Assembly (NCBI GenBank): GCA_029856365.1
Contig: JAHQWW010000039.1
Location: forward strand, 1 to 27,654
Direction: 5' to 3'
DNA: 27,654 bases
Source of the DNA: Candidatus Hodarchaeota archaeon
Lineage (GTDB): Archaea > Asgardarchaeota > Heimdallarchaeia > Hodarchaeales > Hodarchaeaceae
Below the pieces are notes generated by a model that was not told the DNA's origin, did not search any database, and was given only the letters and a program-made list of their open reading frames with translations. The position numbers were made by a program, and so were the translations under genes. Position 1 is the first letter of the stretch. The number at the start of each line of letters is the position of its first letter. Of this stretch, positions 1-25,882 are shown piece after piece.

Positions 1-11
1 AATCATTTTAT

Positions 12-7808: not shown

Positions 7809-8264
7809 ATGCTTACAGAGGACGAATGGTTAGATAGACTGGCAATCGAAGCTCAAGAACTAGCTCGTGAACAACCAACTTTCCGTACAGTAAATAATAA
7901 TTTAACACATTGGAGGGGGGAAATATTAGGCTCGGGTTTGTATGAAGGGGGTGTATTTTTCATCGAAATTCATATTCCCCGTAAATATCCATTTGAGCCG
8001 CCCAAAGTTCGTTTTAAGACCCCAATTTGGCATGTAAATATTTTTAAAGAAAAAGTATGTGTAGGAATCTTAGGTAAGGAATGGAGTCCAGCGTATAGCC
8101 TCGTCCAGATTGTAGAAACAATCAGATTTCTGTTAAATAGCCCGAACCCTGATGATCCCCTCAATGCCACAGCTTCACATCAATGGAAAAAAAATCGTGA
8201 GGTTTTCAGACGACAAGCTGTGGATTATGTCAAAAGATATGCCCATTGGAATCAACAGTATTGA
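7809..8264 (+). CDS. Ubiquitin-conjugating enzyme E2 (UBC fold, catalytic Cys retained)
   Basis: W-x-G-x-I-x-G, YEGGVF, YPFEPPKVRFKTPIWHVNI, VCVGIL (active-site Cys), WSPA and PNPDDPLN. Confidence 0.95.
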   Translation: MLTEDEWLDRLAIEAQELAREQPTFRTVNNNLTHWRGEILGSGLYEGGVFFIEIHIPRKYPFEPPKVRFKTPIWHVNIFKEKVCVGILGKEWSPAYSLVQIVETIRFLLNSPNPDDPLNATASHQWKKNREVFRRQAVDYVKRYAHWNQQY

Positions 8265-10515: not shown

Positions 10516-11013
10516 TTAAATAACAAACCAAGCGGATTCTGTTATAATATCTATATCAATGGAGATCCACTTAACATGAGGTTGAGCTATACGCGATTCA
10601 CAGAGAAGTCGTAAATAAATGTAAATCTCAGGTTCATATAAATATATCTCCCATGTTTTTCCTGTATGGATTTGAAACTCCTGAAGATTTTTATCCTTAA
10701 TTTTGCCATTAGTTAGATTGCATTGGATTACCTCCCCATTAACGTCTTCTAAATTTATATTAATAGTATTAGCAAGAATTTGAAGTAAATCGCCAAGGAG
10801 GATTTTATTAGTCGGATAAATATTCCAAGTAACCGTGACACTTTGCTTGCGACTATTGATCCTTACTGGTAAAGTATGGATTCTGTTGGAAAAATAAGAA
10901 TCTAAAAGGTCTTCAATCTTCGGAACTAATTGTTGAAGAACCTCAGGGAGGATTTCTAAGTTCAAGAAATTACAACTTCCCACGACAATAAGGACATGTA
11001 TGGTGTTTGGCAA
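10516..11013 (-). CDS. Hypothetical protein (true start probably TTG at about 10965)
   Basis: Open frame directly downstream of the RING gene; the TTG start removes a 44-nt overlap. No motif recognised. Confidence 0.55.
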   Translation of the reverse strand: MPNTIHVLIVVGSCNFLNLEILPEVLQQLVPKIEDLLDSYFSNRIHTLPVRINSRKQSVTVTWNIYPTNKILLGDLLQILANTININLEDVNGEVIQCNLTNGKIKDKNLQEFQIHTGKTWEIYLYEPEIYIYLRLLCESRIAQPHVKWISIDIDIITESAWFVI

Positions 11014-11305
11014 GCCAGCGGAACATATGATCTTGATGAGCCTTTTGGTGACAATGAGGACATTCTATATAAGAACCAGCATCTTTATCGTGAATATCGA
11101 TTGGTTTCCAACAAATCATACATTTAACAAGCTCAAAAGGATTCCATTCTCCAATATTTTTACTAATCAGTCTGATAAAAGAGGCACTGGATGATTTAGG
11201 AGGAGTATCACTTGGAATATGAATTTGATTATTATCAGCGCCTTTCCCAATGGGAGATGATCGAAGACTAAGCTTAGTAGAAAGCGTGATTACTTTAGGG
11301 TTCAT
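10970..11305 (-). CDS. RING-finger protein, putative E3 ubiquitin ligase
   Basis: CMIC-x16-CPHC-x3-AH-xx-H-x3-W-x6-CPYCR, including the RING-typical W and CPxCR. Confidence 0.8.
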   Translation of the reverse strand: MNPKVITLSTKLSLRSSPIGKGADNNQIHIPSDTPPKSSSASFIRLISKNIGEWNPFELVKCMICWKPIDIHDKDAGSYIECPHCHQKAHQDHMFRWLAKHHTCPYCRGKL

Positions 11306-11930: not shown

Positions 11931-12500
11931 ATGGAAAGCAGTTCAAAAGACATTTATTCGGTGGTACTATTAGGAACAAGCGGCGTAGGGAAATCTACAA
12001 TCGCTTTTTATCTAGAACATGGATATCCTCCTCCTCGTGACATAAAACCAACAATTGCATTTGGGGTAACTCACGTGGTTATCCAAAATACAGTGATGGG
12101 ATTGATCGATGTGGGAGGTCAACGGAAATTCTTAGATATGCGTTATCACGAGCGTTTTGTACGTGCTGCTGATGGATTGGTCTTTATTGTGGATAGTTCG
12201 CGAAGAAATTTCAGATATGATGAACAATGGTTAGATGACGCTCTAAAGTTAATATCTAATCGAATACCAATTCTTGTGATTGCTAATAAACAAGATTTAC
12301 CTAATGCTCTTTCCCCTGAATTCTTAAAAACACATTTCTTTAGTAAATTTCTAAAGAATAATAATTATAATATTTTTGGTACAGTGGCCGCTGATCCAGG
12401 AGGGATTAGAAGTGGCGAGAATATTGAGATGGCATTTCAGTACCTCATAAACCAAATGAAGCTGAATCGTAAGGTTTTGATAAGACAAAGTCAAATTTAA
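11931..12500 (+). CDS. Arf-like small GTPase (Ras superfamily)
   Basis: G1 GTSGVGKS, G2 KPT, G3 DVGGQ, FIVDS and G4 ANKQDLP, which is the Arf-type signature. Confidence 0.88.
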   Translation: MESSSKDIYSVVLLGTSGVGKSTIAFYLEHGYPPPRDIKPTIAFGVTHVVIQNTVMGLIDVGGQRKFLDMRYHERFVRAADGLVFIVDSSRRNFRYDEQWLDDALKLISNRIPILVIANKQDLPNALSPEFLKTHFFSKFLKNNNYNIFGTVAADPGGIRSGENIEMAFQYLINQMKLNRKVLIRQSQI

Positions 12501-12522: not shown

Positions 12523-13317
12523 TTGTTCGAACAAATTACTCGTGTAACCTCGGGTGTTCCATATTTAGATGCGTTAACATCAGGTGGTTTTATCAAGGGT
12601 ACAACCAATCTAGTAATTGGTCCTGCTGGGGCAGGTAAAACTATTTTTGGCCTACATTTTCTGCTTGAAGGCGCCCGACGAAATGAAAATGGTCTATTGG
12701 TGGCTATGCAAGAGCCCCCATGGGCAATTCGTAGAGACGCGAGCAGTTTCTCTTTTTTTGATCATAGCTTTTTTGCTGAACCAGAGAAAATTGTTATGCT
12801 TGATTTCACTCCCTCGGGTTGGGAACTATGGGATCCCGATAGTTTAACATATACAGAAGAGTCTGAAATGATAATAGAGGCGGAAGGAGTGCCTTATGAC
12901 GAAACATCTCTGCCTACTTTTCTTCACAAAGTATTCTATCATATTAGTCAAGTGGTAGAAGAAAAAAAGATTGAACGTGTTGTGATAGACCCTTTGGCCG
13001 CATTTCAATTCTACGATTATGGAAATGATTTTGGATTTCTAAGAAAGCTTACAACAGGATTTTTAGCAAACATCACAGCTTTGAATGTTACTACTCTTGC
13101 CATATCTGAGTTATCTGGAGGTATGGAGCATTCACTTTTCGGGGAGGAATATATTGCTGATTCAATAGTACACTTAGACATGCTTTCAGTGAGGGGTGAA
13201 ATGATTCGTATTCTTAGAATTGGAAAGATGAGAGCGACCAATCATACCACACAAACTTTAAGGTTTGAAATCAATCATCATGGAATCACTTTTCTTGATT
13301 CTGAAGACAGGGATTGA
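12523..13317 (+). CDS. Single-domain KaiC/RAD55-family ATPase
   Basis: SGVPYLD..TSGG, Walker A GPAGAGKT, Walker B RVVID, ADSIVHL and R-x-LRIGKMR-xx-H. TTG start. Confidence 0.88.
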   Translation: MFEQITRVTSGVPYLDALTSGGFIKGTTNLVIGPAGAGKTIFGLHFLLEGARRNENGLLVAMQEPPWAIRRDASSFSFFDHSFFAEPEKIVMLDFTPSGWELWDPDSLTYTEESEMIIEAEGVPYDETSLPTFLHKVFYHISQVVEEKKIERVVIDPLAAFQFYDYGNDFGFLRKLTTGFLANITALNVTTLAISELSGGMEHSLFGEEYIADSIVHLDMLSVRGEMIRILRIGKMRATNHTTQTLRFEINHHGITFLDSEDRD

Positions 13318-13489: not shown

Positions 13490-13729
13490 ATGCAGATTAA
13501 TGTAGTTCAAGCTATTGGAGGTGGGGAGATCACAATGACTTGTGACAGGACAGACTCGGTTGCTGCTATCAAAGAGCGAGTAGCCCAGCAAAAAAGGATA
13601 CCCGCTAGATCGGTCATCCTTGTCTTTCAGGGAAAACAACTCGATGAAAGTGAGACTCTCAAGTCTGCTGGGATCGAAGATATGGATAAATTGTACATGA
13701 TCACTCGAACTACAGGTGGCTTCGCCTAA
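13490..13729 (+). CDS. Ubiquitin-like protein (pro-form ending GG-FA)
   Basis: 79 aa: MQINV, DSVAAIKERV, IP, LVFQGKQLDESETL..AGI and RTTGG line up with ubiquitin, with GG followed by two residues. Confidence 0.93.
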   Translation: MQINVVQAIGGGEITMTCDRTDSVAAIKERVAQQKRIPARSVILVFQGKQLDESETLKSAGIEDMDKLYMITRTTGGFA

Positions 13730-13829: not shown

Positions 13830-14825
13830 ATGAGTGAGCGGTATAATCGACAGCTTCTGATCAAACATTGGGATCAGAAAAAAATCCAACAAAGTACCGT
13901 GACATTAGTCGGTCTAGGGGCATTGGGGAGTGTTGCTGCTACATCGTTAGCTATGGCTGGAGTAGGAACACTCATTCTTGTTGATTTGGACACCATAGAA
14001 ATGAGTAACCTGAATAGACAACTTCTTTTTCGGGCTGCAGATATAGGAAAACCTAAAGTGAAAGTCTGTGCACAAGTATTACAAGAAATTAATCCAGATG
14101 TTAATGTTATTGCGTTGTACATGCCTATTGAAAAAGCTCCGCGCCATGTCTTAGAAGCCTCGACCGTCATCCTTGAAGGTTTAGACACATTTCAAGCACG
14201 ACGATGGGTTAACTCATTTGCAGTGGGGGCGAATATTCCTTTGATTTCTGGAGGAATTTATAGTTTTTTTGGAAATCTCCAAGTAATTATTCCTCAAGAA
14301 ACTCCCTGTTTGGAATGTCAGTCATTAATTCCAGAAGAAGAGCTTCAAAAAGCCTGTACACCTTTTGGAGAAGTGAGAAAAGAAACTCGACCTACTGAAA
14401 GCGAGGAAGAATATATTCCATATGTTTCTAGTGTTTCTTTTGTCCTAGGAGGTCTTATGGCTCAAGAGGCTTTAAAGGTCATTCTTAGATTACCCCCTTT
14501 GAAAGAATATCTGTTTTGGGATGCAGAGGCTGAGTTGTTCACTTCAGTACCTCTAGAACGTCGGGAGGATTGTATTGTTTGTTCACCACGATATCAACTA
14601 AAAGCAATTCCTATTCGTTCTCCTATTGACCAACAGCTAGGCGACTTCATGGCTCAACTACGATATTCATTTAATCTGAGTTCAGAAATGGCATTATTAT
14701 TTCAAACTCAGAGATTATCTATATCTGAAGAAAAAATAGGAAGTATTTTTCAATCAGGAGCGATTTTCCGGGTTGTTGATCCCACATTATCTACTCCCCT
14801 AAAATTTATGATTAATCTCGACTGA
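13830..14825 (+). CDS. Ubiquitin-activating enzyme E1 (ThiF/MoeB family) with catalytic Cys and C-terminal extension
   Basis: RYNRQ, GLGALG, DLDTIEMSNLNRQ, Zn pairs CLEC and CIVC, and KACT at the thioester-Cys position; directly downstream of ubiquitin. Confidence 0.92.
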   Translation: MSERYNRQLLIKHWDQKKIQQSTVTLVGLGALGSVAATSLAMAGVGTLILVDLDTIEMSNLNRQLLFRAADIGKPKVKVCAQVLQEINPDVNVIALYMPIEKAPRHVLEASTVILEGLDTFQARRWVNSFAVGANIPLISGGIYSFFGNLQVIIPQETPCLECQSLIPEEELQKACTPFGEVRKETRPTESEEEYIPYVSSVSFVLGGLMAQEALKVILRLPPLKEYLFWDAEAELFTSVPLERREDCIVCSPRYQLKAIPIRSPIDQQLGDFMAQLRYSFNLSSEMALLFQTQRLSISEEKIGSIFQSGAIFRVVDPTLSTPLKFMINLD

Positions 14826-14881: not shown

Positions 14882-15658
14882 CTAAAGAAAGTTTGGTAAT
14901 AGAAAAAGAACGATATAGATAAGCGTGAGGATGCCACTAATGCCATAAGAATAATATTCATTAAGTAAATGGGCCGTACGAATACCATTTCCGCAATGAT
15001 AAGCAGTGAGGCCCAAAAAGGGGATATAAAGGATTTCAAATAGTGTGTAATGGGTCCAAGTTGTAGACGTAATGGTTCCAACATCTAATCTTGGTCCTAA
15101 AAAAGTAATTAATAGACTTATTATTATTGATGCGGGAATGAGAGGCCCAAATGAGTAGCCAACAATTCCTTGGGTATCACGAAAACTAGCCTTTCCTCCA
15201 AGTGTTTTTGCTATCAACCAAACAATAAGACTACTGATAATCCATCCAAATATCGCTAAGATGATAAAGGCTATAGCAATAATCCAAGGAGCAATTATGA
15301 AGAATAAAAAATGCCAATCATGCCAAGAGGTGTTCGCACTTATAAAGAAAAATGCACTAAGACGAAACCCATAAGCTACTGAAACAAAATATAGTACAAT
15401 TAAGGCACCAAGACGATCTGGATTGACTCCAATCTCATTAAAAAGACGTTTACTTTCTCTAGGATCAAAAAAACTACGCCAAATTCGCAAAAGTTTTTCT
15501 CTAAATGTAACGCGAACTCGTTCTCTTGCTCGTACAATTTTTGTTAAATCAAAGCCGCAATAAGGGCAGAGAATATAACCTGCTGGACTTCTTTCGCTAC
15601 AATTGGGACAAACGAGGGATTCAGACTCAGACATTCGTTTCCTCTCACGGAAGAGCAA
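14882..15658 (-). CDS. Zinc-ribbon plus Yip1-domain membrane protein
   Basis: N-terminal CPNC-x10-CPYCG, then about 5 hydrophobic segments with the Yip1-type IAKTLGGKASF....GIVGYS..P motif. Confidence 0.78.
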   Translation of the reverse strand: MLFRERKRMSESESLVCPNCSERSPAGYILCPYCGFDLTKIVRARERVRVTFREKLLRIWRSFFDPRESKRLFNEIGVNPDRLGALIVLYFVSVAYGFRLSAFFFISANTSWHDWHFLFFIIAPWIIAIAFIILAIFGWIISSLIVWLIAKTLGGKASFRDTQGIVGYSFGPLIPASIIISLLITFLGPRLDVGTITSTTWTHYTLFEILYIPFLGLTAYHCGNGIRTAHLLNEYYSYGISGILTLIYIVLFLLPNFL

Positions 15659-15873: not shown

Positions 15874-16872
15874 TTAATTTAATGAGAGTTTTTGTTCAAT
15901 GATTTTAAATAACCACGGAACACAAAAAATACCAAAAAACGCCAGAATCGCATATCGACAAAATCGTGCAATTTGATAAAGAGGAAATTCTTTGAAAATC
16001 ATCTCAGTAATAGTACTCAAACCGAAATGAATGATAAAAATTATAATGAGGCCTATAACAGCACGATAAATAAGTATTTTCTTATTTGATCTGACTTCTT
16101 TTACTTTTAGATTGACATAGCGATTTTCAAGCATATAACCAACTGATAAACCTAGAAACAAACCTGCATATGAACTGGTTTCAGCAAGTTCAAAATCATT
16201 ACCCATTAAAACAGTAGAGATATACGATATTACTACTGCTATTATGGGAGCTATTATTGCAATTAGTACTAGAATAGAAGGAGAAGATTTGGCAGCAAAT
16301 TCTTCCATTTTAGGTAACATATAAATAAAGAGTAATGTGATCAATATTCCAAGTAAGACACCAATAATTACATCCGTTGGCCAATGTACACCTAAATAGC
16401 AACGGGAAAGGGGAACCATAACTATCATAAAAACTGCTATTATCCAAAAACTGGGACGGTGCCATTGAGTTGCTAAAAACGGCCAAAACGACCCTGCATT
16501 GGATGAATGTCCACTTGGAAATGTATAATCTGTTGGAAGTTGTCCTAGAATATCTTTGATCCCTTTTATTTCAGTTTTATTCAGCCTTTCATATTCAAGA
16601 TATGGTCGTTCAAGACCAAAAAAGCCTTTTGCCATAAAAGTGATGAAAGCTGTGAAAATTGATAAAAATGCAACGTGAATAGCAAGTTTTTTATCAATAC
16701 AGAAGAAAATTACAATAATAATTCCAATGATGAAGAGTTTATCACCAAAAAAAGTGATAAACCCAAAAAAGAGATCAAGTAATGATGTACTGAATGTTTG
16801 CAAGAAAATTACTATTTGGTCATCTAAAGGACCCAACAATTCACCCATCTTTTTTCCTTCCAAGAGTGTCAA
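15874..16872 (-). CDS. PAP2-family membrane lipid-phosphate phosphatase
   Basis: C1 KGFFGLERP, C2 FPSGH and C3 SRCYLGVHWPTD, plus additional C-terminal TM helices. Confidence 0.92.
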   Translation of the reverse strand: MTLLEGKKMGELLGPLDDQIVIFLQTFSTSLLDLFFGFITFFGDKLFIIGIIIVIFFCIDKKLAIHVAFLSIFTAFITFMAKGFFGLERPYLEYERLNKTEIKGIKDILGQLPTDYTFPSGHSSNAGSFWPFLATQWHRPSFWIIAVFMIVMVPLSRCYLGVHWPTDVIIGVLLGILITLLFIYMLPKMEEFAAKSSPSILVLIAIIAPIIAVVISYISTVLMGNDFELAETSSYAGLFLGLSVGYMLENRYVNLKVKEVRSNKKILIYRAVIGLIIIFIIHFGLSTITEMIFKEFPLYQIARFCRYAILAFFGIFCVPWLFKIIEQKLSLN

Positions 16873-17119: not shown

Positions 17120-18250
17120 ATGGAAGAATTTTACCATAAGGTTCAGGTAGACCTTGAAAAAGCATTGTCAGGGCGCAGTGATTATTTAACGATCTTGGAA
17201 GAAGCTTATTCTCAAGCTGAAAGAACTGAGAAGGATTACATCGAAGATTTTAGACAATTTGGCTTAGAAAGAAGAGCGGAAAAAACTGAAGACATTTACT
17301 TGATTTCCTGTTTTGTAAAAAGTGGCCAGCCATTGTTTGATTATCCTCTATCACAAAAAATTAATTTTCAAGAATCTTTAGGTTTCATTTTAAGTACAAT
17401 AAAAAATTATGTGCGATACAAGCTCGGAGAATTACTTGAAGTTCTTACTCTTGAATCCCAAACCATTCATTTCTTCATAGTTGAACAGATAATCATTTCC
17501 ATTGTTACTTCTAAAAATATCCCCCGAGATAAAATCTATATGTTAGCAATTCAAATCGGACAAATTATAAGTCAACATCCGAATAAAACCCCTCAAACCA
17601 GTCTAGATTTGCGTGGTGATCTTGATCGTGCCATCGACTCAACTAAAGCTACACTCGTTCAGGAACATCACACTTTGAAGGTAATCCTAATTGGTGATGG
17701 TGCAGTAGGGAAGACTTCTATTCGAAGACGCTATCTTGGAGAAGGATTTAAGGTTGACTATCAAATGACTATAGGGGCAGATCTAGCTGCTAAGGCATCT
17801 GATATAATATATACTGGAGGAAAACAGATAAAATACTTGATTTGGGATCTGGCGGGACAACCCCGCTTTACTAATGTGAGAAAGATCTATTACATGTCTG
17901 CTGTGGGAGCGTTGGTCGTATTTGATTTTACTCGTCCTGAGAGTTTTCAGAACATCGTGAAATGGATGAATGAGTTATGGCGAAATAATGGGCGTGGACC
18001 TGTTCCCTTAATTGTTTTGGCTAATAAAATAGATTTATGCTCAGCTGGGCTGCCTTGTGTATCCGAAGAGAAAGTACAAGCTTTTGTCTCTCGCTTGTCT
18101 CAAATTTCAGAGAAATACCGTGGTTTCAAGATTTACTTTCTACCAACAAGTGCAAAAACGGGCCAAAATATAGAACAAGCATTTGAGCTGTTAGGTGAGT
18201 CGATAGTAGACTTCTTATCTTCTGTAAAAATCTCTGGAGGAAAAAAATAG
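17120..18250 (+). CDS. Longin-like domain fused to a Rab-like small GTPase
   Basis: C-terminal GDGAVGKT, TIGADL, IWDLAGQPRF, YYMSA, VVFDFT, NKID and TSAKTG. The N-terminal part (aa about 58-155) has a longin-like beta-beta-alpha-beta-beta-beta-alpha pattern, which is less certain. Confidence 0.85.
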   Translation: MEEFYHKVQVDLEKALSGRSDYLTILEEAYSQAERTEKDYIEDFRQFGLERRAEKTEDIYLISCFVKSGQPLFDYPLSQKINFQESLGFILSTIKNYVRYKLGELLEVLTLESQTIHFFIVEQIIISIVTSKNIPRDKIYMLAIQIGQIISQHPNKTPQTSLDLRGDLDRAIDSTKATLVQEHHTLKVILIGDGAVGKTSIRRRYLGEGFKVDYQMTIGADLAAKASDIIYTGGKQIKYLIWDLAGQPRFTNVRKIYYMSAVGALVVFDFTRPESFQNIVKWMNELWRNNGRGPVPLIVLANKIDLCSAGLPCVSEEKVQAFVSRLSQISEKYRGFKIYFLPTSAKTGQNIEQAFELLGESIVDFLSSVKISGGKK

Positions 18251-18561: not shown

Positions 18562-19338
18562 ATGTTTAAGCCAATAATTCAAAGAAAGGAGCCAGAAATA
18601 AAAATGGATAGAGATTTTATTTTAGCACGAGAGGCACAACTGGTTTTTTCTAATTCTGCAGCCTCAGGGTTCAATCCTGTAGGAGAATCCTTAGCACGAT
18701 GGCAAGGAACTTTGACCTACACAACCAGTCGAGGCCGAAACATGTTTTCTTTCGAGATCTTTTTACCAGAATATTTCCCCAATGTCCCTCCCGTGGTTAC
18801 AGCAGTTGGTTACATGGATCACCCAAATATCGATGAAGATAGCTTTGTTCAATTACGAATCTTAGATAACTGGCGTGCAGAGTTTCATCTTTACCAAGTG
18901 ATTATAGCATTAAAGAACCTCATGTCTAGGGTGCCTCCAACTCCACGAGGTGAGGCTGCTAAGTCAGTTCGCGAAACAGTTGCCCGATTAACCGAAACGC
19001 CCCCAGTGATCGAACGTCAAACAACCTCCGCAGAAACTACGGCCTTAAGAACAGAGGTATCTTCTTTAACACATAAATTACAGGAAAAAGATGAAGAATT
19101 AGCCCGATTACGTGCACAACAGATGGTTCAAGTACAAACATCACAGAGAGATCAACGTTCAAGTCTCTCAGCTCAGGATAACCTCGAATCAGAACGTATT
19201 GCCCTCTCAGAGTTATTAGCATCACTTGAAGATCGCTATTCAGCTGGGGAGATTTCAATTTTCGAATATTCACGTTTATACAAAAAATATACAAAAGAAC
19301 TATATACAATTCGAAAACAATTAAATTATTTGGGATAG
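18562..19338 (+). CDS. vps23: ESCRT-I Vps23/TSG101-like protein (UEV, coiled coil, steadiness box)
   Basis: UBC fold (WQG, LPEYFPNVPP, HPNI) with no catalytic Cys (SFVQL), Pro-rich linker, coiled coil, and SB-like ALSELLASLEDRYSAGEISIFEYSRLYKKY. Confidence 0.87.
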   Translation: MFKPIIQRKEPEIKMDRDFILAREAQLVFSNSAASGFNPVGESLARWQGTLTYTTSRGRNMFSFEIFLPEYFPNVPPVVTAVGYMDHPNIDEDSFVQLRILDNWRAEFHLYQVIIALKNLMSRVPPTPRGEAAKSVRETVARLTETPPVIERQTTSAETTALRTEVSSLTHKLQEKDEELARLRAQQMVQVQTSQRDQRSSLSAQDNLESERIALSELLASLEDRYSAGEISIFEYSRLYKKYTKELYTIRKQLNYLG

Positions 19339-19339
19339 G

Positions 19340-19969
19340 ATGAATTTCATGACTTTTCCTCCAAATTTAGCGAAACGTTGGGAATTAGAAGGACATTTAT
19401 ATGCAAATATTGGGACTCTTGACTTATTATCTCGGACTTATGAGCGAGGTGAATTAGATCCGAATATCTTTCATAAACAACACAAGAATCTTTTAACATC
19501 AATTGTTGCGATTCGAGGAAAGCTAGAAAGCTATAATTTTGATTTGGATGACTTCATTCATACGGAACAGATTGAAAAATTATTTCCATATGGTCTTGAG
19601 AAACTTCATATGACAGAAGGTACAGATGACTCACCTCGAAATCGCATTGATTATAGCCAAATTAAGAAACTTCCCAGTGTTGCGGCCGAATTTGTAGCTA
19701 ATGCCATTGAATTACTTGATCTTCTTCGTTTAGAGGCCATAGCAACTGTAGATCGAATTCTACCTTATCTAGATGAGCTTTACGCAATTCTAACTAAATC
19801 TCATGTATATGGAACTGATCATTGGGTAACACAAGATATTGATCAGTGGATAAAGTGGATGGATAGGCAAAAACCCGGCCAACTCTTAAAACAAGACGAA
19901 TTGCGAAAGTTAGAGTTGCAGGCTACAAGATGGCTTTCAGATTTCCGCCGAGAATTGAATAATCTCTGA
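19340..19969 (+). CDS. vps28: ESCRT-I Vps28-like protein
   Basis: LYANIGTLDLLSRTYERGEL (compare Vps28 L.A.I..L..LEKAY..D.I) and a C-terminal helical bundle (FVANAIELLDLLRL..VDRILPYLDEL); starts 1 nt after vps23. Confidence 0.85.
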   Translation: MNFMTFPPNLAKRWELEGHLYANIGTLDLLSRTYERGELDPNIFHKQHKNLLTSIVAIRGKLESYNFDLDDFIHTEQIEKLFPYGLEKLHMTEGTDDSPRNRIDYSQIKKLPSVAAEFVANAIELLDLLRLEAIATVDRILPYLDELYAILTKSHVYGTDHWVTQDIDQWIKWMDRQKPGQLLKQDELRKLELQATRWLSDFRRELNNL

Positions 19970-20006: not shown

Positions 20007-21353
20007 TCAATTCAAAAGATTGGTTTTCCCAGTTCGAACCAGCAATTCTGTAATTGCATCATTTATTTTAGCGAGCTCCAATTCGAATTGTTTGATCAAC
20101 TCGAAATAATCTCGACTGGAGACCTTTTTTCTTCCTTCCTTGAGTTCCTGTAAAGCCTTTTCATTAGCCAGCTTACGTAAGCGAAGGTCACGAAGTCGAT
20201 CTTCAAGAACCCCTGTGACAAAATCTGGTTCTCTTTCTTGGTCGGAAGTTGTTTCAGCCGTTCCCCTCGTGTTTCCGATCATATTTGAACTAAAATTAAG
20301 CGCTGAAAGTATTTTTTCTTGGTAAATTTCGGAAGACCAATCTCGAAACGGTTCATGGACATATATATCACTGGGACGTCCGTAATAACTTAGTTGAAGT
20401 GCATCAAATATTCGCATTAGGGTCTGAAAATCCGCTCGCAGTTCATAGTCATGTTTGATGGTTGTTATTTGAAGTTTATCCCGTTTCAGAAGCCCTGTGT
20501 TTGTTTTTTGGACATCAATCAGATCTTCTGGTGGAAATTCATCATTTATTATAATTTTCTGACCTAATATCTTGTGTCTTTTTTTACTGAGCATAACAAT
20601 TCTATCAGTTGTGATTACCAAATCAATAGAACTCTTTCTGATACCACTGTTCTGTAATCCAATATTTGGGAAAAAACCTATAGCCAATTCTCCAGGTACA
20701 AAAACAAAGACATCAAAGCATCGTCCAAGATGTCGTGCCATCTCCTCAAACTGATCACACTGATTTTCTATATACTCAATTAGATCGTGGATTGGTTGAA
20801 GTTTATCATGGACTGTTTGATCGAAACTGGTAATTTGTTTCTGGAAAAGACTAAGTTGAAGCGAAAGATTACGATAATCAGTAAAAGAGGAGTCTAAACC
20901 CATTAAACTGCGATAGAGTCGATTTAATTTCGAAGCATATTCTTGAAATTCAGATAAGGTAAAATTTTCAATTTTTTTGGTGTCGAGGAAGATTTTATCG
21001 ATCTGATTTCCTGGGATAAGAAACTGTTTTCTAAAAGATCGTAATCTGGATTCAAGATGCCCAGTGCGTTTAAGTACGATGACTGAGCGATAACCTACTT
21101 GTTTAAGTGAGCGTTTCAACTCAAAAATATGTTCCAAGGTTTCAGTTTTCAAATTCTGTGTAGGAGAACCCATTTCAATATTTGGTGAACCGCATGGACA
21201 TTTAAACTGGGCACCATTAGTCTGTAGTTGAGAGGCACACTGAGAACAGAATGCTGCACCGCAATCAAAACACTTCTGGGAATCTAACTCTCGAATCATG
21301 GTGCCACAAAATGAACAATAAAAGCTTGATATTCCGGAAGGCATCTCGAGCAC
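20007..21353 (-). CDS. Uncharacterised 8-Cys Zn-finger / coiled-coil / PH-like / helical-tail protein (probable start ATG 21344)
   Basis: C-x2-C-x11-C-x2-C-x4-C-x2-C-x12-C-x-C; LVITTDRIVML..KLQITT resembles PH-like folds. The annotated GTG lies inside an SD-like GAGGTG that ends 6 nt before an ATG. Confidence 0.7.
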   Translation of the reverse strand: MLEMPSGISSFYCSFCGTMIRELDSQKCFDCGAAFCSQCASQLQTNGAQFKCPCGSPNIEMGSPTQNLKTETLEHIFELKRSLKQVGYRSVIVLKRTGHLESRLRSFRKQFLIPGNQIDKIFLDTKKIENFTLSEFQEYASKLNRLYRSLMGLDSSFTDYRNLSLQLSLFQKQITSFDQTVHDKLQPIHDLIEYIENQCDQFEEMARHLGRCFDVFVFVPGELAIGFFPNIGLQNSGIRKSSIDLVITTDRIVMLSKKRHKILGQKIIINDEFPPEDLIDVQKTNTGLLKRDKLQITTIKHDYELRADFQTLMRIFDALQLSYYGRPSDIYVHEPFRDWSSEIYQEKILSALNFSSNMIGNTRGTAETTSDQEREPDFVTGVLEDRLRDLRLRKLANEKALQELKEGRKKVSSRDYFELIKQFELELAKINDAITELLVRTGKTNLLN

Positions 21354-21637: not shown

Positions 21638-22354
21638 ATGGGATTACGGAGAATCGAAGAGAAACTTGCTCAAGAAGCTGAGATGAAGCATAAAGGTACG
21701 GAATTAGCGCTGAAATCCTTAGAAGAAATGACCCGAAAAGTCCAGGATCTTCATGAGGATTTACAAAGGTTAGAGAAAAGGCATCAAGCAGATCTAAAGA
21801 AGAATCCTGAACTATCTCGACGCTTAATGGCACTACGAGAGGAATTGGGACTTCCCCGTGCCATAGGGATCTATGAGGTGGGGAAACAACCAGGTTTGAT
21901 GCAACGATTAAAAGGAAAGGATGAATATCATAATTTCTTGGCACTAAGAATCATAGAGCTAGGAAAACAAATGCGAAGTCAAACTGGTGGGCTTCTCAGT
22001 ATCTCAGAATTAGCCTTAAGGTTAAGCGACGAAAGTCAAGGAATTACTACCTCAATTGGTGATATCACAAAAGCTCTTAATTTATTAAAAGAGAATGGAA
22101 TGATTCATGAAATCCGTCAATTATCTGGGATGAAAGTTGTAGTGTTTATTGACCCTAAGCTAACCACAGATCACCAAGTCATCTTAGAATTAGCAGCTCG
22201 ATTTCAGGGACAAATTGGTTTAACTGAATTAGTTAGAGAGACATCATGGACGCTAGATCGTGTAAACCAGGGGTTAACACAATTAATCCAACAAAAAATC
22301 GCAATTAAAACCGAAACTTTGGACGGAGTAATTATATCCTTTCCAGGGATCTAA
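21638..22354 (+). CDS. vps22: ESCRT-II Vps22/Vps36 (EAP30)-like protein
   Basis: MGLRRI, HQADLKKNPEL, LALRIIELG..RSQTGGLLSISEL, DITKALNLL, LTTDHQVILELA and SWTLDRV match tandem winged helices of EAP30/Vps22. Confidence 0.9.
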   Translation: MGLRRIEEKLAQEAEMKHKGTELALKSLEEMTRKVQDLHEDLQRLEKRHQADLKKNPELSRRLMALREELGLPRAIGIYEVGKQPGLMQRLKGKDEYHNFLALRIIELGKQMRSQTGGLLSISELALRLSDESQGITTSIGDITKALNLLKENGMIHEIRQLSGMKVVVFIDPKLTTDHQVILELAARFQGQIGLTELVRETSWTLDRVNQGLTQLIQQKIAIKTETLDGVIISFPGI

Positions 22355-22570: not shown

Positions 22571-23236
22571 TTGAAAAGATTTAAAGGTTTTTTAACCGGA
22601 AAAAAACCTAATAGCTCAACTGAAACTAAAGCAAAACTGAAACGTACCATCAATCAAATGGAAGTTAAAATCAGGAACTATTCAAGACAAGCAGATGAAC
22701 AGTATGAGCTTGCTCGAACTTTATTAAAATCAGGAAATAAGTTAGGCGCTCAACAGGCATTGAAACGCCGTGAACTTTACTTAACCCAAGTTTCAAACAC
22801 ACACAACAAAATTGCCAACCTTCAGAGAACAATTGATACTCTAGACGTATCAGCAGACAATGTTGCTTTAACTGAAACTCTAGCTTCTGCTCAAACAGCT
22901 ATTGATGCCAATATTGATGCAGCTTCCCCTGAGAGAACAGAAGAAGTAATGATGGCCTTGGAAGACTCTATTGAAATGGTTTCAGGTATGGAAGAAGCAT
23001 TAACGGACACTTCAATCACTGAAATTGGAATGGATGTTGAAGCAGATGATCGCATCTCTCAGCAAATGGCTGAATTGGAAGCTGAATTAGCTTCTGGTTC
23101 GCTTCCAGAGCCAAGTGTTGAAACATCGACCCCTGTCACTCCTGTGACGGAAACATCCTCCACTACTAAACGTGAAGCTGAGAAAAAGAAACTAGATGAA
23201 ATGCGACGACAAATTGAAGAAGGTTTGAGGTCCTAA
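22571..23236 (+). CDS. ESCRT-III Snf7/Vps20/32/60-class protein
   Basis: Basic N-terminal half (GNKLGAQQALKRR), acidic C-terminal half, ELEAEL then LPEP. TTG start. Confidence 0.88.
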   Translation: MKRFKGFLTGKKPNSSTETKAKLKRTINQMEVKIRNYSRQADEQYELARTLLKSGNKLGAQQALKRRELYLTQVSNTHNKIANLQRTIDTLDVSADNVALTETLASAQTAIDANIDAASPERTEEVMMALEDSIEMVSGMEEALTDTSITEIGMDVEADDRISQQMAELEAELASGSLPEPSVETSTPVTPVTETSSTTKREAEKKKLDEMRRQIEEGLRS

Positions 23237-23238
23237 GA

Positions 23239-23856
23239 ATGGTCTTTGATAAATTCGGAAATTGGTTGAAAGGTGGAGGTCGTAGCGATGCTAGATCCAC
23301 ACGAAAATGGATTGTACGACTACGTATGGTCGAAAAACGGATGAATCGTCAGCGAAACAAGCTCATTAAAGAAGAGAAACGAATGCTTAAGGAAGTTGAA
23401 AGATCAATCGAAGATGGCGATATGACAACAGCACGATTATTAGCGAAAGATGTAGCGAAAAATCGAACCATGGCTCGTGGATGTCAACAAATGGCAAGCC
23501 GAGTAAAAGGGATCAAATTCAAATTAGAGCAGGCTGCTGCAACCCAAGCCATAGGTCAGGATCTCAAAGGGCTAGTAAAAACCCTCCACACAATGAATAG
23601 ACAGCTAAAGATTCCTCAGCTTGAAAGTGTCCTTCAGCAAATGGAGATTGAAACTGAAAGAGTTGACATGGCTACAGAAGCTATGGATGAAGGTTTCGAG
23701 ATGATGACTTCAGATGTTGAGGAGGACGAAATGGTGGACAAGATAATTGGGGAATTGAGTGCTTCAAAAGCAGCTGCAGCTGACTTTGGACTTCCATCAC
23801 CGGACATTCGTAGTCAAGAACTTCAAAAAGAATTGGAGAAAATCAAGAAAGGATAG
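23239..23856 (+). CDS. ESCRT-III Vps2/24/46-class protein
   Basis: GDMTTARLLAKDVAKNR, MNRQLKIPQL..LQQME, VDKIIGEL and a C-terminal MIM1-like helix. Confidence 0.9.
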   Translation: MVFDKFGNWLKGGGRSDARSTRKWIVRLRMVEKRMNRQRNKLIKEEKRMLKEVERSIEDGDMTTARLLAKDVAKNRTMARGCQQMASRVKGIKFKLEQAAATQAIGQDLKGLVKTLHTMNRQLKIPQLESVLQQMEIETERVDMATEAMDEGFEMMTSDVEEDEMVDKIIGELSASKAAAADFGLPSPDIRSQELQKELEKIKKG

Positions 23857-23914: not shown

Positions 23915-25060
23915 ATGAGCTCTCCATTGTTTGAAGCTGCTAAAAAGAATGCAGCCACAGCGTACAGACTCGATCAGAGTGGACAAACATCACAAGCGGT
24001 ACGATATTATGTGAATGCTGCTGAACAACTGCAGAAACTAATCAATTTTACTGACGATCCAAGTATGAAAAATTTATATTATCAAAAAGCCATGGAATAT
24101 ATTTTACGTGTAAAGGAAATTCGCGGGATTGTGGGATCGTCTGAATCTAAGACAGGTTCCACTGCAGCGCCTTCAACTGAAGATGATGAGATTTCAGGGG
24201 CCATCTCTAGCGTGATTGTTAGAGAAAAGCCCAATGTCAAGTGGGAAGATGTTGCTGGTATGGAAGGTGCAAAACGAGCCCTACGTGAAGCTGTCATTCT
24301 TCCTATGTCTCGACCAGATTTATTCAAAGGCGCTCGCAAACCATGGAAAGGAATCTTGATGTTTGGCCCGCCTGGGTGTGGAAAGACATATCTCTGTAAG
24401 GCAGTCGCATCTGAAGTAGACTCAACCTTTTTTTCTGTAAGTGCAGCTAATTTAATTAGTAAGTGGTTAGGAGAATCAGAAAAATTAGTTAAGGAATTAT
24501 ATGATCGTGCTGTTGAAGAAGCTCCTTCTATAATATTCTTTGACGAGATAGATGCCCTCGCAGGAGCAAGAGGTGGAAGTTCTGAGGGAGAAGCAATGCG
24601 CCGTATCAAAACACAGCTACTACAGGCAGTTGAGGGATTTGAGACTGGAGAAGAACTACTGGTCACCGTGGGGGCTACAAACACACCCTGGGATATTGAT
24701 GCAGCCATGCGTCGACGATTTGAGCGACGGGTCTATGTTACGTTACCAACAACTGAAGCTCGCGGAATAATGTTTCAGATTCATACCCGTGGTGTAAAAT
24801 TAGATTCAGATGTCAGTTTTGAAGAACTAGCAAAATATACTGCAGGATACAGCGCTGCAGATATTGCCCTCCTATGTCGTGAGGCCTTAATGCACCCCAT
24901 TCGGGAACTCGATGCTGATGGGGCATTGAAAGATGCAAGTATTCAGCCTCGAGCCCCTAACTTTAACGACTTTGTTGTTTCTATGGAAAATATCAAACCC
25001 TCAGTATCACCTAAAGAACTAGCACGTTATGAAGAGTGGAAAGATCAGTTTGGGGGATAG
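23915..25060 (+). CDS. vps4: Vps4 AAA+ ATPase with N-terminal MIT domain
   Basis: MIT domain (AYRLD..AVRYY..A), EKPNVKWEDVAG, GPPGCGKT, SKWLGESEKLVK, FFDEID, ATNTPWDID.AMRRRFERR and C-terminal W..QFG. Confidence 0.96.
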   Translation: MSSPLFEAAKKNAATAYRLDQSGQTSQAVRYYVNAAEQLQKLINFTDDPSMKNLYYQKAMEYILRVKEIRGIVGSSESKTGSTAAPSTEDDEISGAISSVIVREKPNVKWEDVAGMEGAKRALREAVILPMSRPDLFKGARKPWKGILMFGPPGCGKTYLCKAVASEVDSTFFSVSAANLISKWLGESEKLVKELYDRAVEEAPSIIFFDEIDALAGARGGSSEGEAMRRIKTQLLQAVEGFETGEELLVTVGATNTPWDIDAAMRRRFERRVYVTLPTTEARGIMFQIHTRGVKLDSDVSFEELAKYTAGYSAADIALLCREALMHPIRELDADGALKDASIQPRAPNFNDFVVSMENIKPSVSPKELARYEEWKDQFGG

Positions 25061-25102: not shown

Positions 25103-25882
25103 ATGTCTGAGATGCAACGAAAAAGAGATAAGGAAAAGAAAAAAACAGAACCCGTTGATGTACTTGGAACAGTCTTAGATGAGGTTACAAAAGAACCCTC
25201 AACTTCAAAATCCCCAGATTTAGAGCAAATTAGTGCTGAGGTTTCCCGTTCATCCCCTATACTTTCATCTGTTCAAAGTAAATCCACCTCAGCAGTACAA
25301 ATTCCTCCTATCTCTACTACAACCGAACCAGTAGCAGTACCAAAACTTCAACCAGGAACCGTTGACCCACGCGTGAAACCAGTTCTTCCTGCGTGGGTGG
25401 GAAAACCTTGGCGTTGGATGGTGCCCGAAGATCTACAATTAAAACAACAATGGTTAACTACATGGGGAGAATTTATGCTGGATTTTGCACGAGTGCTAAA
25501 TTTCCATATCCTTGATCTCCAAGAAGTGGCACTTGTCTACCCTTTTCAAAATCCTCTTATAAAGAAAAAATTAACACTCCCTCAACTTGTATTGATTTCT
25601 GAATATCTTATAGAAATTGAACGAGCCAGCTGGTGGGATGATGAAAAAACACGCTTACGTGTGTACTGGAAGACCTTGAAGTCGCATGCTGATGAGTTGT
25701 TTCATTACGCATTTCAACATGGTTATGATATGGTCACAGCTTTTGATATTGTCAAGATGAAACAGTCATGGTCCACATTACCTCCAGCTGATATTCGAAT
25801 GCTCATGAAAATAATGGTAGAATCGAAGCGAGCTTCATGGGCAGATTCGGAACGGAAGACAATTGAATTTCATTATGCTTAA
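25103..25882 (+). CDS. vps25: ESCRT-II Vps25-like protein with low-complexity N-terminal extension
   Basis: P..L.QQWLTTWGEFMLDF, PFQNPLIKKKL, ASW..EKTRLRVYWKT...AD.LF match the Vps25 winged-helix pattern. Confidence 0.85.
   Translation: MSEMQRKRDKEKKKTEPVDVLGTVLDEVTKEPSTSKSPDLEQISAEVSRSSPILSSVQSKSTSAVQIPPISTTTEPVAVPKLQPGTVDPRVKPVLPAWVGKPWRWMVPEDLQLKQQWLTTWGEFMLDFARVLNFHILDLQEVALVYPFQNPLIKKKLTLPQLVLISEYLIEIERASWWDDEKTRLRVYWKTLKSHADELFHYAFQHGYDMVTAFDIVKMKQSWSTLPPADIRMLMKIMVESKRASWADSERKTIEFHYA

Follow-up and report, generated by a model that had tools for sequence, protein, structure and literature searches.

Hodarchaeales count among the archaea for which the closest relationship to eukaryotes has been proposed, and their ESCRT cluster serves as a model of how ubiquitin-dependent sorting arose. 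The biochemistry of Asgard ESCRT-I has so far been worked out with Vps23 and Vps28 only, and Vps37 and Vps36, of which Asgard archaea have no clear homologues, were concluded to be missing (Hatano et al. 2022). In the window (the whole stretch of 27,654 nucleotides that was analysed), a gene for a multidomain protein lies between vps28 and vps22. Does its product belong to ESCRT-I, and could it supply what the other subunits lack?

The gene and its place in the ESCRT cluster

The locus is a ubiquitin–ESCRT cluster of the Hodarchaeales type in which ubiquitin, an E1 and an E2, the last at 7809-8264, are all encoded. A sequence-only reading had placed the target gene between vps28 and vps22 and divergent from vps22; the ORF calls and the Pfam matches of the neighbours confirm this arrangement (Table 1). 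The Vps23-like product consists of a UEV/E2-variant domain, a coiled coil and a steadiness-box tail, and together with the Vps28 product it is a presumed partner of the target protein. Translation would start at a GTG at 21353 or at an ATG at 21344, and a GAGGTG is found 6 nt 5' of the latter. The target gene is separated from vps22 by an AT-rich spacer of 284 nt. A scan for sigma-70 promoters and intrinsic terminators around the target gene, which is not designed for archaea, gave nothing above chance.

Table 1. Genes of the cluster and parts of the target protein, with their positions in the window
Feature	Position	Strand	Basis and remarks
Target gene (P0001)	20007..21353	(-)	448 aa; ORF list and translation
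Vps23-like gene	18562..19338	(+)	Pfam UQ_con 1.4e-12, UEV 0.0053
Vps28 gene	19340..19969	(+)	Pfam VPS28 7.1e-12; convergent with target gene, 37-nt gap
EAP30/Vps22 gene	21638..22354	(+)	Pfam EAP30 1.5e-17; divergent from target gene
Rab-like GTPase gene	17120-18250		~1.8 kb from target gene
Separate RING protein of the same cluster	10970-11305
8-Cys zinc finger, residues ~11-56	21186..21323	(-)	Cys conservation, AF2 model, profile matches
Four-helix bundle/coiled-coil region, residues 65-211	20721..21161	(-)	AF2, conserved columns
PH-fold domain of GRAM/GLUE/bPH type, residues ~218-326	20376..20702	(-)	AF2, VIA-align
Linker, residues ~353-377	20223..20297	(-)	pLDDT <50 at 357-376; variable alignment columns
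C-terminal helical hairpin, residues 378-441	20031..20222	(-)	AF2 helices 378-405 and 413-441
Extreme C-terminal peptide (R/K)TGKTNLL	20010..20033	(-)	conserved

The target gene is real: homologues are intact, and in the same slot, in 20 of the 21 genomes of the genus. We found 52 close homologues of the protein. Synteny, which the sequence-only reading had named as a check on its proposal, agrees with an ESCRT connection. The order Vps23, Vps28, target (on the opposite strand), Vps22 is kept in the same-genus loci, and the adjacency of Vps28 and the target gene was seen in three distant loci and in each same-genus locus that extends far enough. Homologues that share only 21-33% identity with the target also occupy the slot between vps28 and vps22. 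One member from another family of the class is encoded ~7 kb away from an ORF of 467 aa that gave a steadiness-box match. The homologue of Heimdall LC_3 does not adjoin vps28 or vps22, and its finger is degenerate.

Relationship to the Znr_CC_PH_SB family

An Asgard family with this architecture, Znr_CC_PH_SB (asCOG cog.011556), has been described, and its members were proposed to be likely components of ESCRT-I that bind membranes through the PH domain (Makarova et al. 2024, mBio, PMC10936438). According to the type description it has three zinc ribbons, and the Lokiarchaeum type member of cog.011556 comprises 650 aa (PMC10936438). The sequence-only reading had presented the target as a new ESCRT adaptor. 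Its domain reading (finger, helices, PH-like region and steadiness-box-like tail) and the linkage to ESCRT genes hold up, but the claim of novelty does not, since both the architecture and the inference of an ESCRT-I protein with a membrane-binding PH domain were already published for Znr_CC_PH_SB (PMC10936438).

We aligned the profile of the target subfamily with ~500-aa proteins of other Asgard families by hhalign and obtained a match of 99.8% (E 1.5e-28) that spans 415 collinear columns from finger to tail. These long forms contain six Cys pairs, their PH domain gives weak GRAM/bPH matches, and their tail matches Vps23_core. The long-form profile matched 360 of 399 Asgard genomes, in 81 of 85 genera, and among its matches were open frames of 644-730 aa in the largest family, which fits the length of the Lokiarchaeum type member. 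In the window's own genome the best match was the target gene, and the same search found no separate long-form copy there.

The target has four Cys pairs where the long form has six, pairs 4 and 5 being deleted in the alignment. Four pairs are common to relatives of the same order; the other sampled families of the class have five or six. We read the smaller number as a derived reduction inside the family and not as exclusion from it. That the target belongs to the Znr_CC_PH_SB family (cog.011556 type) we consider very likely, and that it is the Hodarchaeales short form of a pan-Asgard Znr_CC_PH_SB protein we consider probable.

The zinc finger, helical bundle and PH domain

The cysteines of the N-terminal finger follow the pattern C13-x2-C16-x11-C28-x2-C31-x4-C36-x2-C39-x12-C52-x-C54, which includes KCFDCGAAFCSQC, within the sequence GISSFYCSFCG...DSQKCFDCGAAFCSQC...QFKCPCG. 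Seven of the eight are invariant among 20 family members and C54 is nearly so; the finger probably binds two zinc ions. The AF2 model of residues 1-68 has a pLDDT of 70, and zinc ligation is not readable from it. Nearly all structures that resemble it are RING, U-box or ZZ domains, with weak scores (VIA Z<=5.6; Foldseek best E 0.034, TM ~0.57). The finger profile matched MID1 B-box1 (5.6e-5), RUFY1 FYVE (3.2e-4), and PKC C1 and TRIM32 RING (9e-4) in the PDB. A phmmer search of the target protein against PDB sequences returned matches to the finger only, all weak (E 0.38 or worse), and in Pfam searches with the full-length sequence and with each part, the finger reached sub-threshold scores only. 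By model and profile, the finger is of a generic RING/B-box/ZZ/FYVE-like type.

The finger had been called FYVE-like before, with the remark that its eight cysteines lack WxxD and RRHHCR and end in CxC. The remark is correct, and part of the name can be kept: the eight ligands form four pairs with the central CxxC-x4-CxxC spacing of FYVE domains. The identity as a FYVE domain has to be dropped. The motifs WxxD, R(R/K)HHCR and RVC, which make up the PI3P pocket of FYVE domains, are absent, and the Pfam FYVE match is far below threshold (E 0.2; 12.2 bits vs a cut-off of 27.8).

The long helical segment noticed downstream of the finger is predicted by AF2 to be a bundle of four helices (65-87, 89-105, 115-150 and 160-211; pLDDT 88-97). 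Within the Hodarchaeales subfamily this is the most conserved part of the protein, with many invariant columns, and by hhalign it corresponds to the coiled-coil region of the long forms. Its structural matches were generic helical bundles only.

In the AF2 model, residues 224-324 form seven strands and a C-terminal helix, and this PH fold coincides with the PH-like region read earlier at 20380-20710 (residues 215-325). VIA-align matched the region to PH folds with Z 11.5-13.3 and rmsd 2.4-3.0 over 93-111 residues. The matches include the PH-GRAM domain of MTMR2 (Z 13.3, rmsd 3.0, 111 aligned), the PH domains of Bcr (Z 12.7) and TAPP1 (Z 12.3) and the GLUE domain of EAP45 (Z 11.5, rmsd 2.8, 97 aligned). 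Pfam found nothing significant on the PH domain of the target in whole-protein and per-part scans; the equivalent region of the long forms gave weak matches to bPH_3 in 7/7 and to GRAM in 4/7. The domain carries an ITTDR motif and the conserved basic loop residues R239, R259, K290 and R291. Its fold and these basic residues are what suggests that it may bind lipids.

The C-terminal hairpin

The tail had been said to resemble that of the neighbouring Vps23. A helical hairpin, which is a common element, is indeed present, and profile-profile comparison matched the target tail to Vps23 in equivalent register, with low probability (E 8e-4 to 4.5e-3). A resemblance at the level of pairwise alignment was not borne out: BLASTP of the two tails gave no alignment. 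Residues 375-448 matched no Pfam family at E<=10, including Mod_r and Vps23_core, and Mod_r was not among the Pfam matches of 27 subfamily members or 7 long forms. With a tail-only profile, no Vps23, TSG101 or Vps37 chain was found in the PDB, where the hits were coiled-coil noise only. Tail-only hhalign matches were modest, both to the long-form tail (34.7%, E 4e-4) and to Vps23 (24%, E 8e-4).

The tails of the long forms gave clearer matches. Pfam Vps23_core was matched in 6/7 members, the best match (E 5.3e-6) being at the gathering score. The tail of the long-form profile matched the yeast Vps23 core (2p22_A, 1.1e-6) and TSG101 (6vme_B, 0.003) in the PDB and also the tail of the local Hodarchaeales Vps23 (91.7%, E 7.8e-7). 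By position, the hairpin of the target would be homologous to the Vps23_core-type steadiness box of the long forms, an assignment that is transitive.

The peptide that ends the protein is conserved: G442, K443 and N445 are invariant and T441 is nearly so in 19 sequences. The motif is kept in P0064, which is 33% identical.

A possible third subunit of ESCRT-I

Whether the target is a true ESCRT-I headpiece subunit is, judged from sequence, close to evenly balanced, and we lean slightly towards it. The C-terminal hairpin would act as a steadiness box, packing against its counterparts in Vps23 and Vps28, and would make the target a third headpiece subunit of archaeal ESCRT-I, equivalent in position to eukaryotic Vps37. 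The PH domain would keep the complex on the membrane via its conserved basic loops, and the zinc finger would offer one more site of protein contact, perhaps for ubiquitin, an E2 or the C-terminal domain of Vps28. In combination, they would take over in Asgard ESCRT-I the tasks that fall to the GLUE and NZF domains of Vps36 in eukaryotic ESCRT-II. A complex prediction with Vps23 190-258, Vps28 1-110 and target 372-448 scored 0.00 in both runs and, as it had no controls, counts neither way. Vps23 and Vps28 of Odinarchaeota assemble into a 2:1 trimer with no third protein present (Hatano et al. 2022), which means that this lineage can do without a third subunit.

That ESCRT-I of Odinarchaeota assembles without a third protein (Hatano et al. 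2022) would also suit an upstream, ESCRT-0-like or accessory adaptor outside the headpiece, which would only recruit or regulate ESCRT at membranes and whose hairpin and helical bundle would mediate self-association or bind some other partner. In the subfamily, direct matches to a steadiness box are weak, the combination of a helical dimerisation domain with a PH domain is common (e.g. SKAP-Hom, Z 10.8), and the finger pattern resembles that of ESCRT-0 FYVE fingers. Against such an adaptor, which we regard as unlikely, the long-form tails pass or nearly pass Vps23_core and match solved Vps23/TSG101 headpieces, and the tail of the target is positionally equivalent to them. Moreover, the target has no VHS, UIM or GAT domain, no P(S/T)AP motif and none of the lipid-binding motifs of FYVE. 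The target may also contact Vps22 and/or the C-terminal domain of Vps28 through finger and PH domain and not be mainly a headpiece subunit, a view that overlaps with an ESCRT-I subunit as the best explanation. It would be in keeping with the divergent orientation of the two genes over a shared spacer and with the likeness of the PH fold to EAP45 GLUE (Z 11.5). Asgard archaea have no Vps36, and a free-standing steadiness-box protein of Lokiarchaeota contacted Vps22 in a yeast two-hybrid assay (Hatano et al. 2022); yeast Vps36 makes equivalent contacts by its GLUE domain and zinc fingers (PMC10936438). The AF2 model of the target, however, contains no winged-helix domain, so the protein cannot be an ESCRT-II core subunit, and a GRAM-type PH fits better than GLUE (Z 13.3 vs 11.5; Pfam GRAM and bPH_3 in the long forms). 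EAP30 and Vps36 were not among the Pfam matches to the target, nor was Vps36 among those to the long forms. From the sequence, we find this role decidedly unlikely.

Two further readings give a catalytic or regulatory task to parts of the protein. If the finger were a working RING-type E3 or an E2-docking module, it could couple ubiquitylation by the E1 and E2 of the cluster, which also encodes ubiquitin, to ESCRT-I at the membrane. The neighbours of the finger model are nearly all RING or U-box, the long-form profile matches the RINGs of RNF4, COP1 and TRIM21 at 1.5e-6 to 1e-3, and in our own reading of the sequence the last Cys pair, C-P-C, recalls the C-P-x-C of RINGs. Yet the scores of the target finger are sub-threshold (zf-RING_2 14.6 bits vs a cut-off of 27.3; VIA Z <=5.6; Foldseek E 0.034), B-box, ZZ, FYVE and C1 fingers score about equally, and the C-x4-C spacing between pairs 2 and 3 is FYVE/PHD-like and not RING-like. 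The cluster, moreover, already has a separate RING protein. We judge a RING function highly improbable. There is a slimmer chance still that archaeal ESCRT-I uses the finger as an E2-docking/E3 module to ubiquitylate cargo at the membrane and reads the mark by the UEV domain of Vps23. If true, one complex would both write and read the sorting signal, an arrangement that, to our knowledge, is not found in eukaryotic ESCRT-I. The bundle and PH domain, finally, might act in the manner of a DH-PH module and exchange guanine nucleotides on the Rab-like/Arf-like GTPases encoded nearby. The top Foldseek matches to the full model were DH-PH RhoGEFs (E ~1e-6), and the Rab-like gene is close by. But the TM-scores of these matches are only 0.19-0.27 at rmsd 17-27 A, and VIA-align gave rmsd 10-20 A with Z at most 12.6, not above the 13.3 of the PH domain alone. 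The four helices of the bundle span 147 residues, compared with ~200 for a DH domain, and RhoGEF was not among the Pfam matches to residues 60-215, even at E<=10. We set aside the DH-PH reading of the top Foldseek matches, since the structures superpose badly and inclusion of the DH portion does not improve on the match of the PH domain by itself, and regard an exchange function as hardly credible.

Significance

A protein of the target type is the natural candidate for the third, membrane-binding subunit that is missing from Asgard ESCRT-I. As this idea is already in the literature (PMC10936438), the window adds three smaller points: the short, two-zinc form appears to be a derived character of the order; the gene holds a fixed position among its neighbours; and the short form escapes Pfam and is often truncated in gene calls, with loss of the zinc finger. 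Recombinant proteins would allow a direct test of the proposed function.

Comparison with known systems

With the FYVE domain of ESCRT-0 Vps27/Hrs, the finger of the target shares eight cysteines, the central CxxC-G-xx-F-CxxC and sub-threshold Pfam and PDB profile matches. It differs in that the PI3P-pocket motifs are missing and the last pair is CxC, not CxxC; furthermore, B-box, RING, ZZ and C1 fingers fit it as well or better. Vps36/EAP45 of ESCRT-II is likewise an early-acting ESCRT protein in which zinc fingers accompany a PH fold. Its GLUE domain, however, is a split PH with inserted NZF fingers, whereas the fingers of the target are N-terminal and not inserted. Unlike Vps36, the target has no winged-helix domains, and a GRAM-type PH fits it at least as well as GLUE.

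The headpiece of eukaryotic Vps37 and Vps23 (TSG101) resembles the target in its C-terminal helical hairpin of ~60 residues; the long-form relatives match Vps23_core and solved headpieces, and the gene lies beside vps23 and vps28. The target itself matches neither Mod_r nor Vps23_core and has no UEV domain, and upstream of its hairpin are a disordered linker and the PH domain in place of a long stalk helix.

Compared with Znr_CC_PH_SB proteins, which have ~500-730 aa, the target is shorter (448 aa), its last Cys pair is CxC, its PH domain and tail have diverged too far to be matched by Pfam, and its position between vps28 and vps22 is fixed. Both have, in the same order, a Cys-pair zinc module, a coiled-coil or helical region, a PH domain and a steadiness-box-type hairpin, and they share the genomic linkage to ESCRT genes and the same proposed role.

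Genomic context of the target gene

Pfam scans of the gene products show that the window carries an Asgard-type ubiquitin–ESCRT cluster (see table). As the sequence-only reading had it, the target gene lies between vps28 and vps22; it converges on vps28 with 37 nt between them and diverges from vps22, which begins 284 nt away. The ORF encodes 448 aa and starts at a GTG (21353) or an ATG (21344), the latter with GAGGTG 6 nt upstream. The gene is real: we found 52 close homologues (50–86% identity; those named belong to metagenome-assembled genomes of Hodarchaeales and Heimdallarchaeota) and an intact copy in 20 of the 21 genomes of the genus.

Gene calls frequently clip the zinc finger (window 21299–21353, minus strand; locus L006, 7860–8010). 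The catalogued version of the window's protein (P0002, 430 aa) lacks 18 residues, spanning only 96% of the ORF, and in the distant homologue P0072 the called start is an internal Met, with CSLC...CPDC...CEMC...CIC upstream in frame. Elsewhere in the cluster, the Rab/Ras-like GTPase encoded immediately upstream of vps23 has its GTPase domain in residues 187–362 only, and Pfam matches nothing in the ~185 residues at its N-terminus. In the Vps25 homologue, the Pfam ESCRT-II match is restricted to residues 112–219; the first ~110 residues are rich in Ser/Thr/Pro and look disordered.

Genes of the cluster (window positions) and structural elements of the target protein (residues)
Feature	Position	Strand	Basis
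E2	7809–8264	+	Pfam
RING protein	10970–11305	-	Pfam
Arf-like GTPase	11931–12500	+	Pfam
KaiC-like ATPase	12523–13317	+	Pfam
Ubiquitin	13490–13729	+	Pfam
ThiF-type E1	13830–14825	+	Pfam
Yip1 protein	14882–15658	-	Pfam
PAP2 phosphatase	15874–16872	-	Pfam
Rab-like GTPase	17120–18250	+	Pfam
Vps23-like (UQ_con/UEV)	18562–19338	+	Pfam
Vps28	19340–19969	+	Pfam
Target gene	20007–21353	-	ORF
EAP30/Vps22	21638–22354	+	Pfam
Snf7 protein 1 of two	22571–23236	+	Pfam
Snf7 protein 2 of two	23239–23856	+	Pfam
Vps4	23915–25060	+	Pfam
Vps25	25103–25882	+	Pfam
Finger	residues ~10–60		AlphaFold2
Four long helices	residues 65–211		AlphaFold2, pLDDT 88–97
PH region (seven strands, C-terminal helix)	residues 224–324		AlphaFold2
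Short helix	residues 342–352		AlphaFold2
Disordered stretch	residues 357–376		AlphaFold2
Helical hairpin	residues 378–405 and 413–441		AlphaFold2

Relationship to a published Asgard family

Only 13 proteins came out of an exhaustive phmmer search against 1.84 billion representatives; several of them, at 21–33% identity, keep the vps28–vps22 slot. Searching 399 Asgard genomes with a profile gave weaker matches to ~500-aa ORFs of other families, several adjoining Snf7 gene pairs. Seven such ORFs, termed the long form, contain helical and PH regions besides six invariant Cys pairs, and a tail with the motif F-x-E-G-K-I-S-x-E-x-F-F-K-Q-Y-R. In hhalign, the profile of the target's Hodarchaeales subfamily aligned with the long-form profile at 99.8% (E 1.5e-28), the 415 aligned columns being collinear; the long form's Cys pairs 4 and 5 are missing from the target.

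Pfam assigned Vps23_core to six of the seven long forms (best E 5.3e-6, at gathering score), bPH_3 to all seven and GRAM to four. Their profile also matched the yeast Vps23 core (2p22_A, 1.1e-6), TSG101 (6vme_B, 0.003), RING fingers and the Hodarchaeales Vps23 tail (91.7%, E 7.8e-7). It found matches in 360 of 399 Asgard genomes and 81 of 85 genera, including 644–730-aa frames in the largest family. Within the window's own genome, which is 84% complete, the target was its best match, and this search found no long-form copy there. Because the other families sampled in the class retain five or six Cys pairs, against four in the target's order, we read the short finger as derived.

The Asgard-specific family Znr_CC_PH_SB (cog.011556) combines zinc ribbons, a coiled coil, a PH domain expected to be membrane associated and a steadiness box; it is likely ancestral in Asgard archaea and likely an ESCRT-I component (Makarova et al. 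2024, PMC10936438). We conclude that the target is very probably a short-form member of this family. The target is not a new adaptor, and the central idea of the sequence-only reading was already in print, since that study describes the family and proposes the ESCRT-I role.

The homologue in Heimdall LC_3 (P0071, HeimC3_02860) lies away from vps28/vps22, beside aEF-2, AAA ATPase and rpS26e genes; its finger is degenerate (5 Cys), and a related protein, P0075, keeps all eight. An aEF-2 (EF-G family) gene recurs in three distant lineages (L003, L006 and L001, the LC_3 locus), a few kb from target homologues or from the ESCRT cluster. In G033, a genome from another family of the class, contig C1 (322100–323218; 329784–330002) carries a Zn-PH family member and, ~7 kb away, a 467-aa ORF that has a steadiness-box match and is of a length consistent with the UEV–Vps23–Vps28 fusion described for Heimdall AB_125. 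In this Zn-PH protein the profile match ends before the last ~100 residues, and the tail may be divergent or lost there.

Domains of the target protein

The AlphaFold2 model (27 family sequences; mean pLDDT 78.7, pTM 0.62) contains the long helical segment previously noticed after the finger, and its elements fit almost exactly where finger, PH-like region and tail had been placed from sequence. Using VIA-align against 48,161 PDB representatives, residues ~212–330 superposed on PH-type domains: MTMR2 PH-GRAM (Z 13.3, rmsd 3.0 Å, 111 aligned residues), Bcr PH (Z 12.7, 2.4 Å, 93), TAPP1 PH (Z 12.3, 2.8 Å, 99) and EAP45 GLUE (Z 11.5, 2.8 Å, 97). These matches lend good support to a PH fold in the PH-like region; a specific GLUE kinship is unsupported, EAP45 scoring below MTMR2. 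Foldseek ranked DH-PH RhoGEFs highest (E about 1e-6), which would make the target a DH-PH-like exchange factor, yet TM was 0.19–0.27, and in VIA-align these alignments had an rmsd of 10–20 Å and did not outscore matches to PH domains alone. Since nothing is gained from the helical bundle, we reject the DH reading and regard an exchange factor as highly improbable.

The finger reads C13-x2-C16-x11-C28-x2-C31-x4-C36-x2-C39-x12-C52-x-C54 and probably binds two zinc ions. All but one of the eight Cys are invariant among 20 members; the exception, C54, in the terminal CxC already recognized, is nearly so. The FYVE lipid-pocket motifs WxxD and R(R/K)HHCR are absent, as noted earlier, and so is RVC. 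Pfam FYVE scored below its threshold (12.2 bits; cut-off 27.8). A profile of the finger matched MID1 B-box1 (5.6e-5), RUFY1 FYVE (3.2e-4), PKC-delta C1 (9e-4) and TRIM32 RING (9e-4). In a separate model of residues 1–68 (pLDDT 70), structural neighbours were almost exclusively RING, U-box and ZZ domains. Taken together, missing motifs, neighbours and profile matches place the finger in a generic RING/B-box/FYVE-like class. A RING-type E3 module would agree with these neighbours, but their scores are low (VIA Z <=5.6; Foldseek best E 0.034), and we consider it improbable. With its N-terminal zinc module (model positions 1–61), the long-form profile also picked up a 67-aa ORF elsewhere in the window's own genome (contig C85, 2338–2520, plus strand; E 7e-7), which may be a free-standing mini zinc-finger protein.

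The subfamily tail has no Pfam match, BLASTP did not match the target's tail to that of its own Vps23, and the tail-only subfamily profile retrieved no Vps23-type chain from the PDB. Tail-only hhalign gave 34.7% (E 4e-4) with the long-form tail and 24% (E 8e-4) with the local Vps23 tail, both alignments lying around the turn motif G-(R/E)-x-x-(V/I)-S-x-x-(D/E)-Y in corresponding register. The likeness to the neighbouring Vps23 tail is weak. Past the hairpin, the extreme C-terminus (R/K)TGKTNLL (window 20010–20033, minus strand) varies little or not at all within the Hodarchaeales subfamily, and a relative with 33% identity retains a recognizable version, SGLTNLM; this end of the protein could serve as a short docking peptide.

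Possible role in ESCRT-I

Hatano et al. (2022, PMC9192718) report a 2:1 trimer of Odinarchaeota Vps23 with Vps28, and find no clear Vps37 or Vps36 homologues in Asgard archaea. We slightly favour the explanation that the target joins the Vps23/Vps28 headpiece via its hairpin, a candidate steadiness box. The PH domain would then anchor the complex through its conserved basic loop residues R239, R259, K290 and R291, and the finger would supply an additional protein contact. An accessory adaptor outside the headpiece seems unlikely, and an ESCRT-I/II bridge replacing Vps36, which overlaps with headpiece membership, somewhat less likely still.

Our findings demonstrate the target's architecture and PH fold, its homology to the long-form family from end to end, and its strictly conserved position; they confirm what the sequence-only reading observed and partly support its interpretation. 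What is new is confined to the short form, here defined as derived, to the fixed order of genes in which it sits and to pitfalls in its annotation. The Lokiarchaeum member of Znr_CC_PH_SB, as tabulated by Makarova et al. (2024, PMC10936438), has 650 aa and is encoded close to a Vps20 gene.
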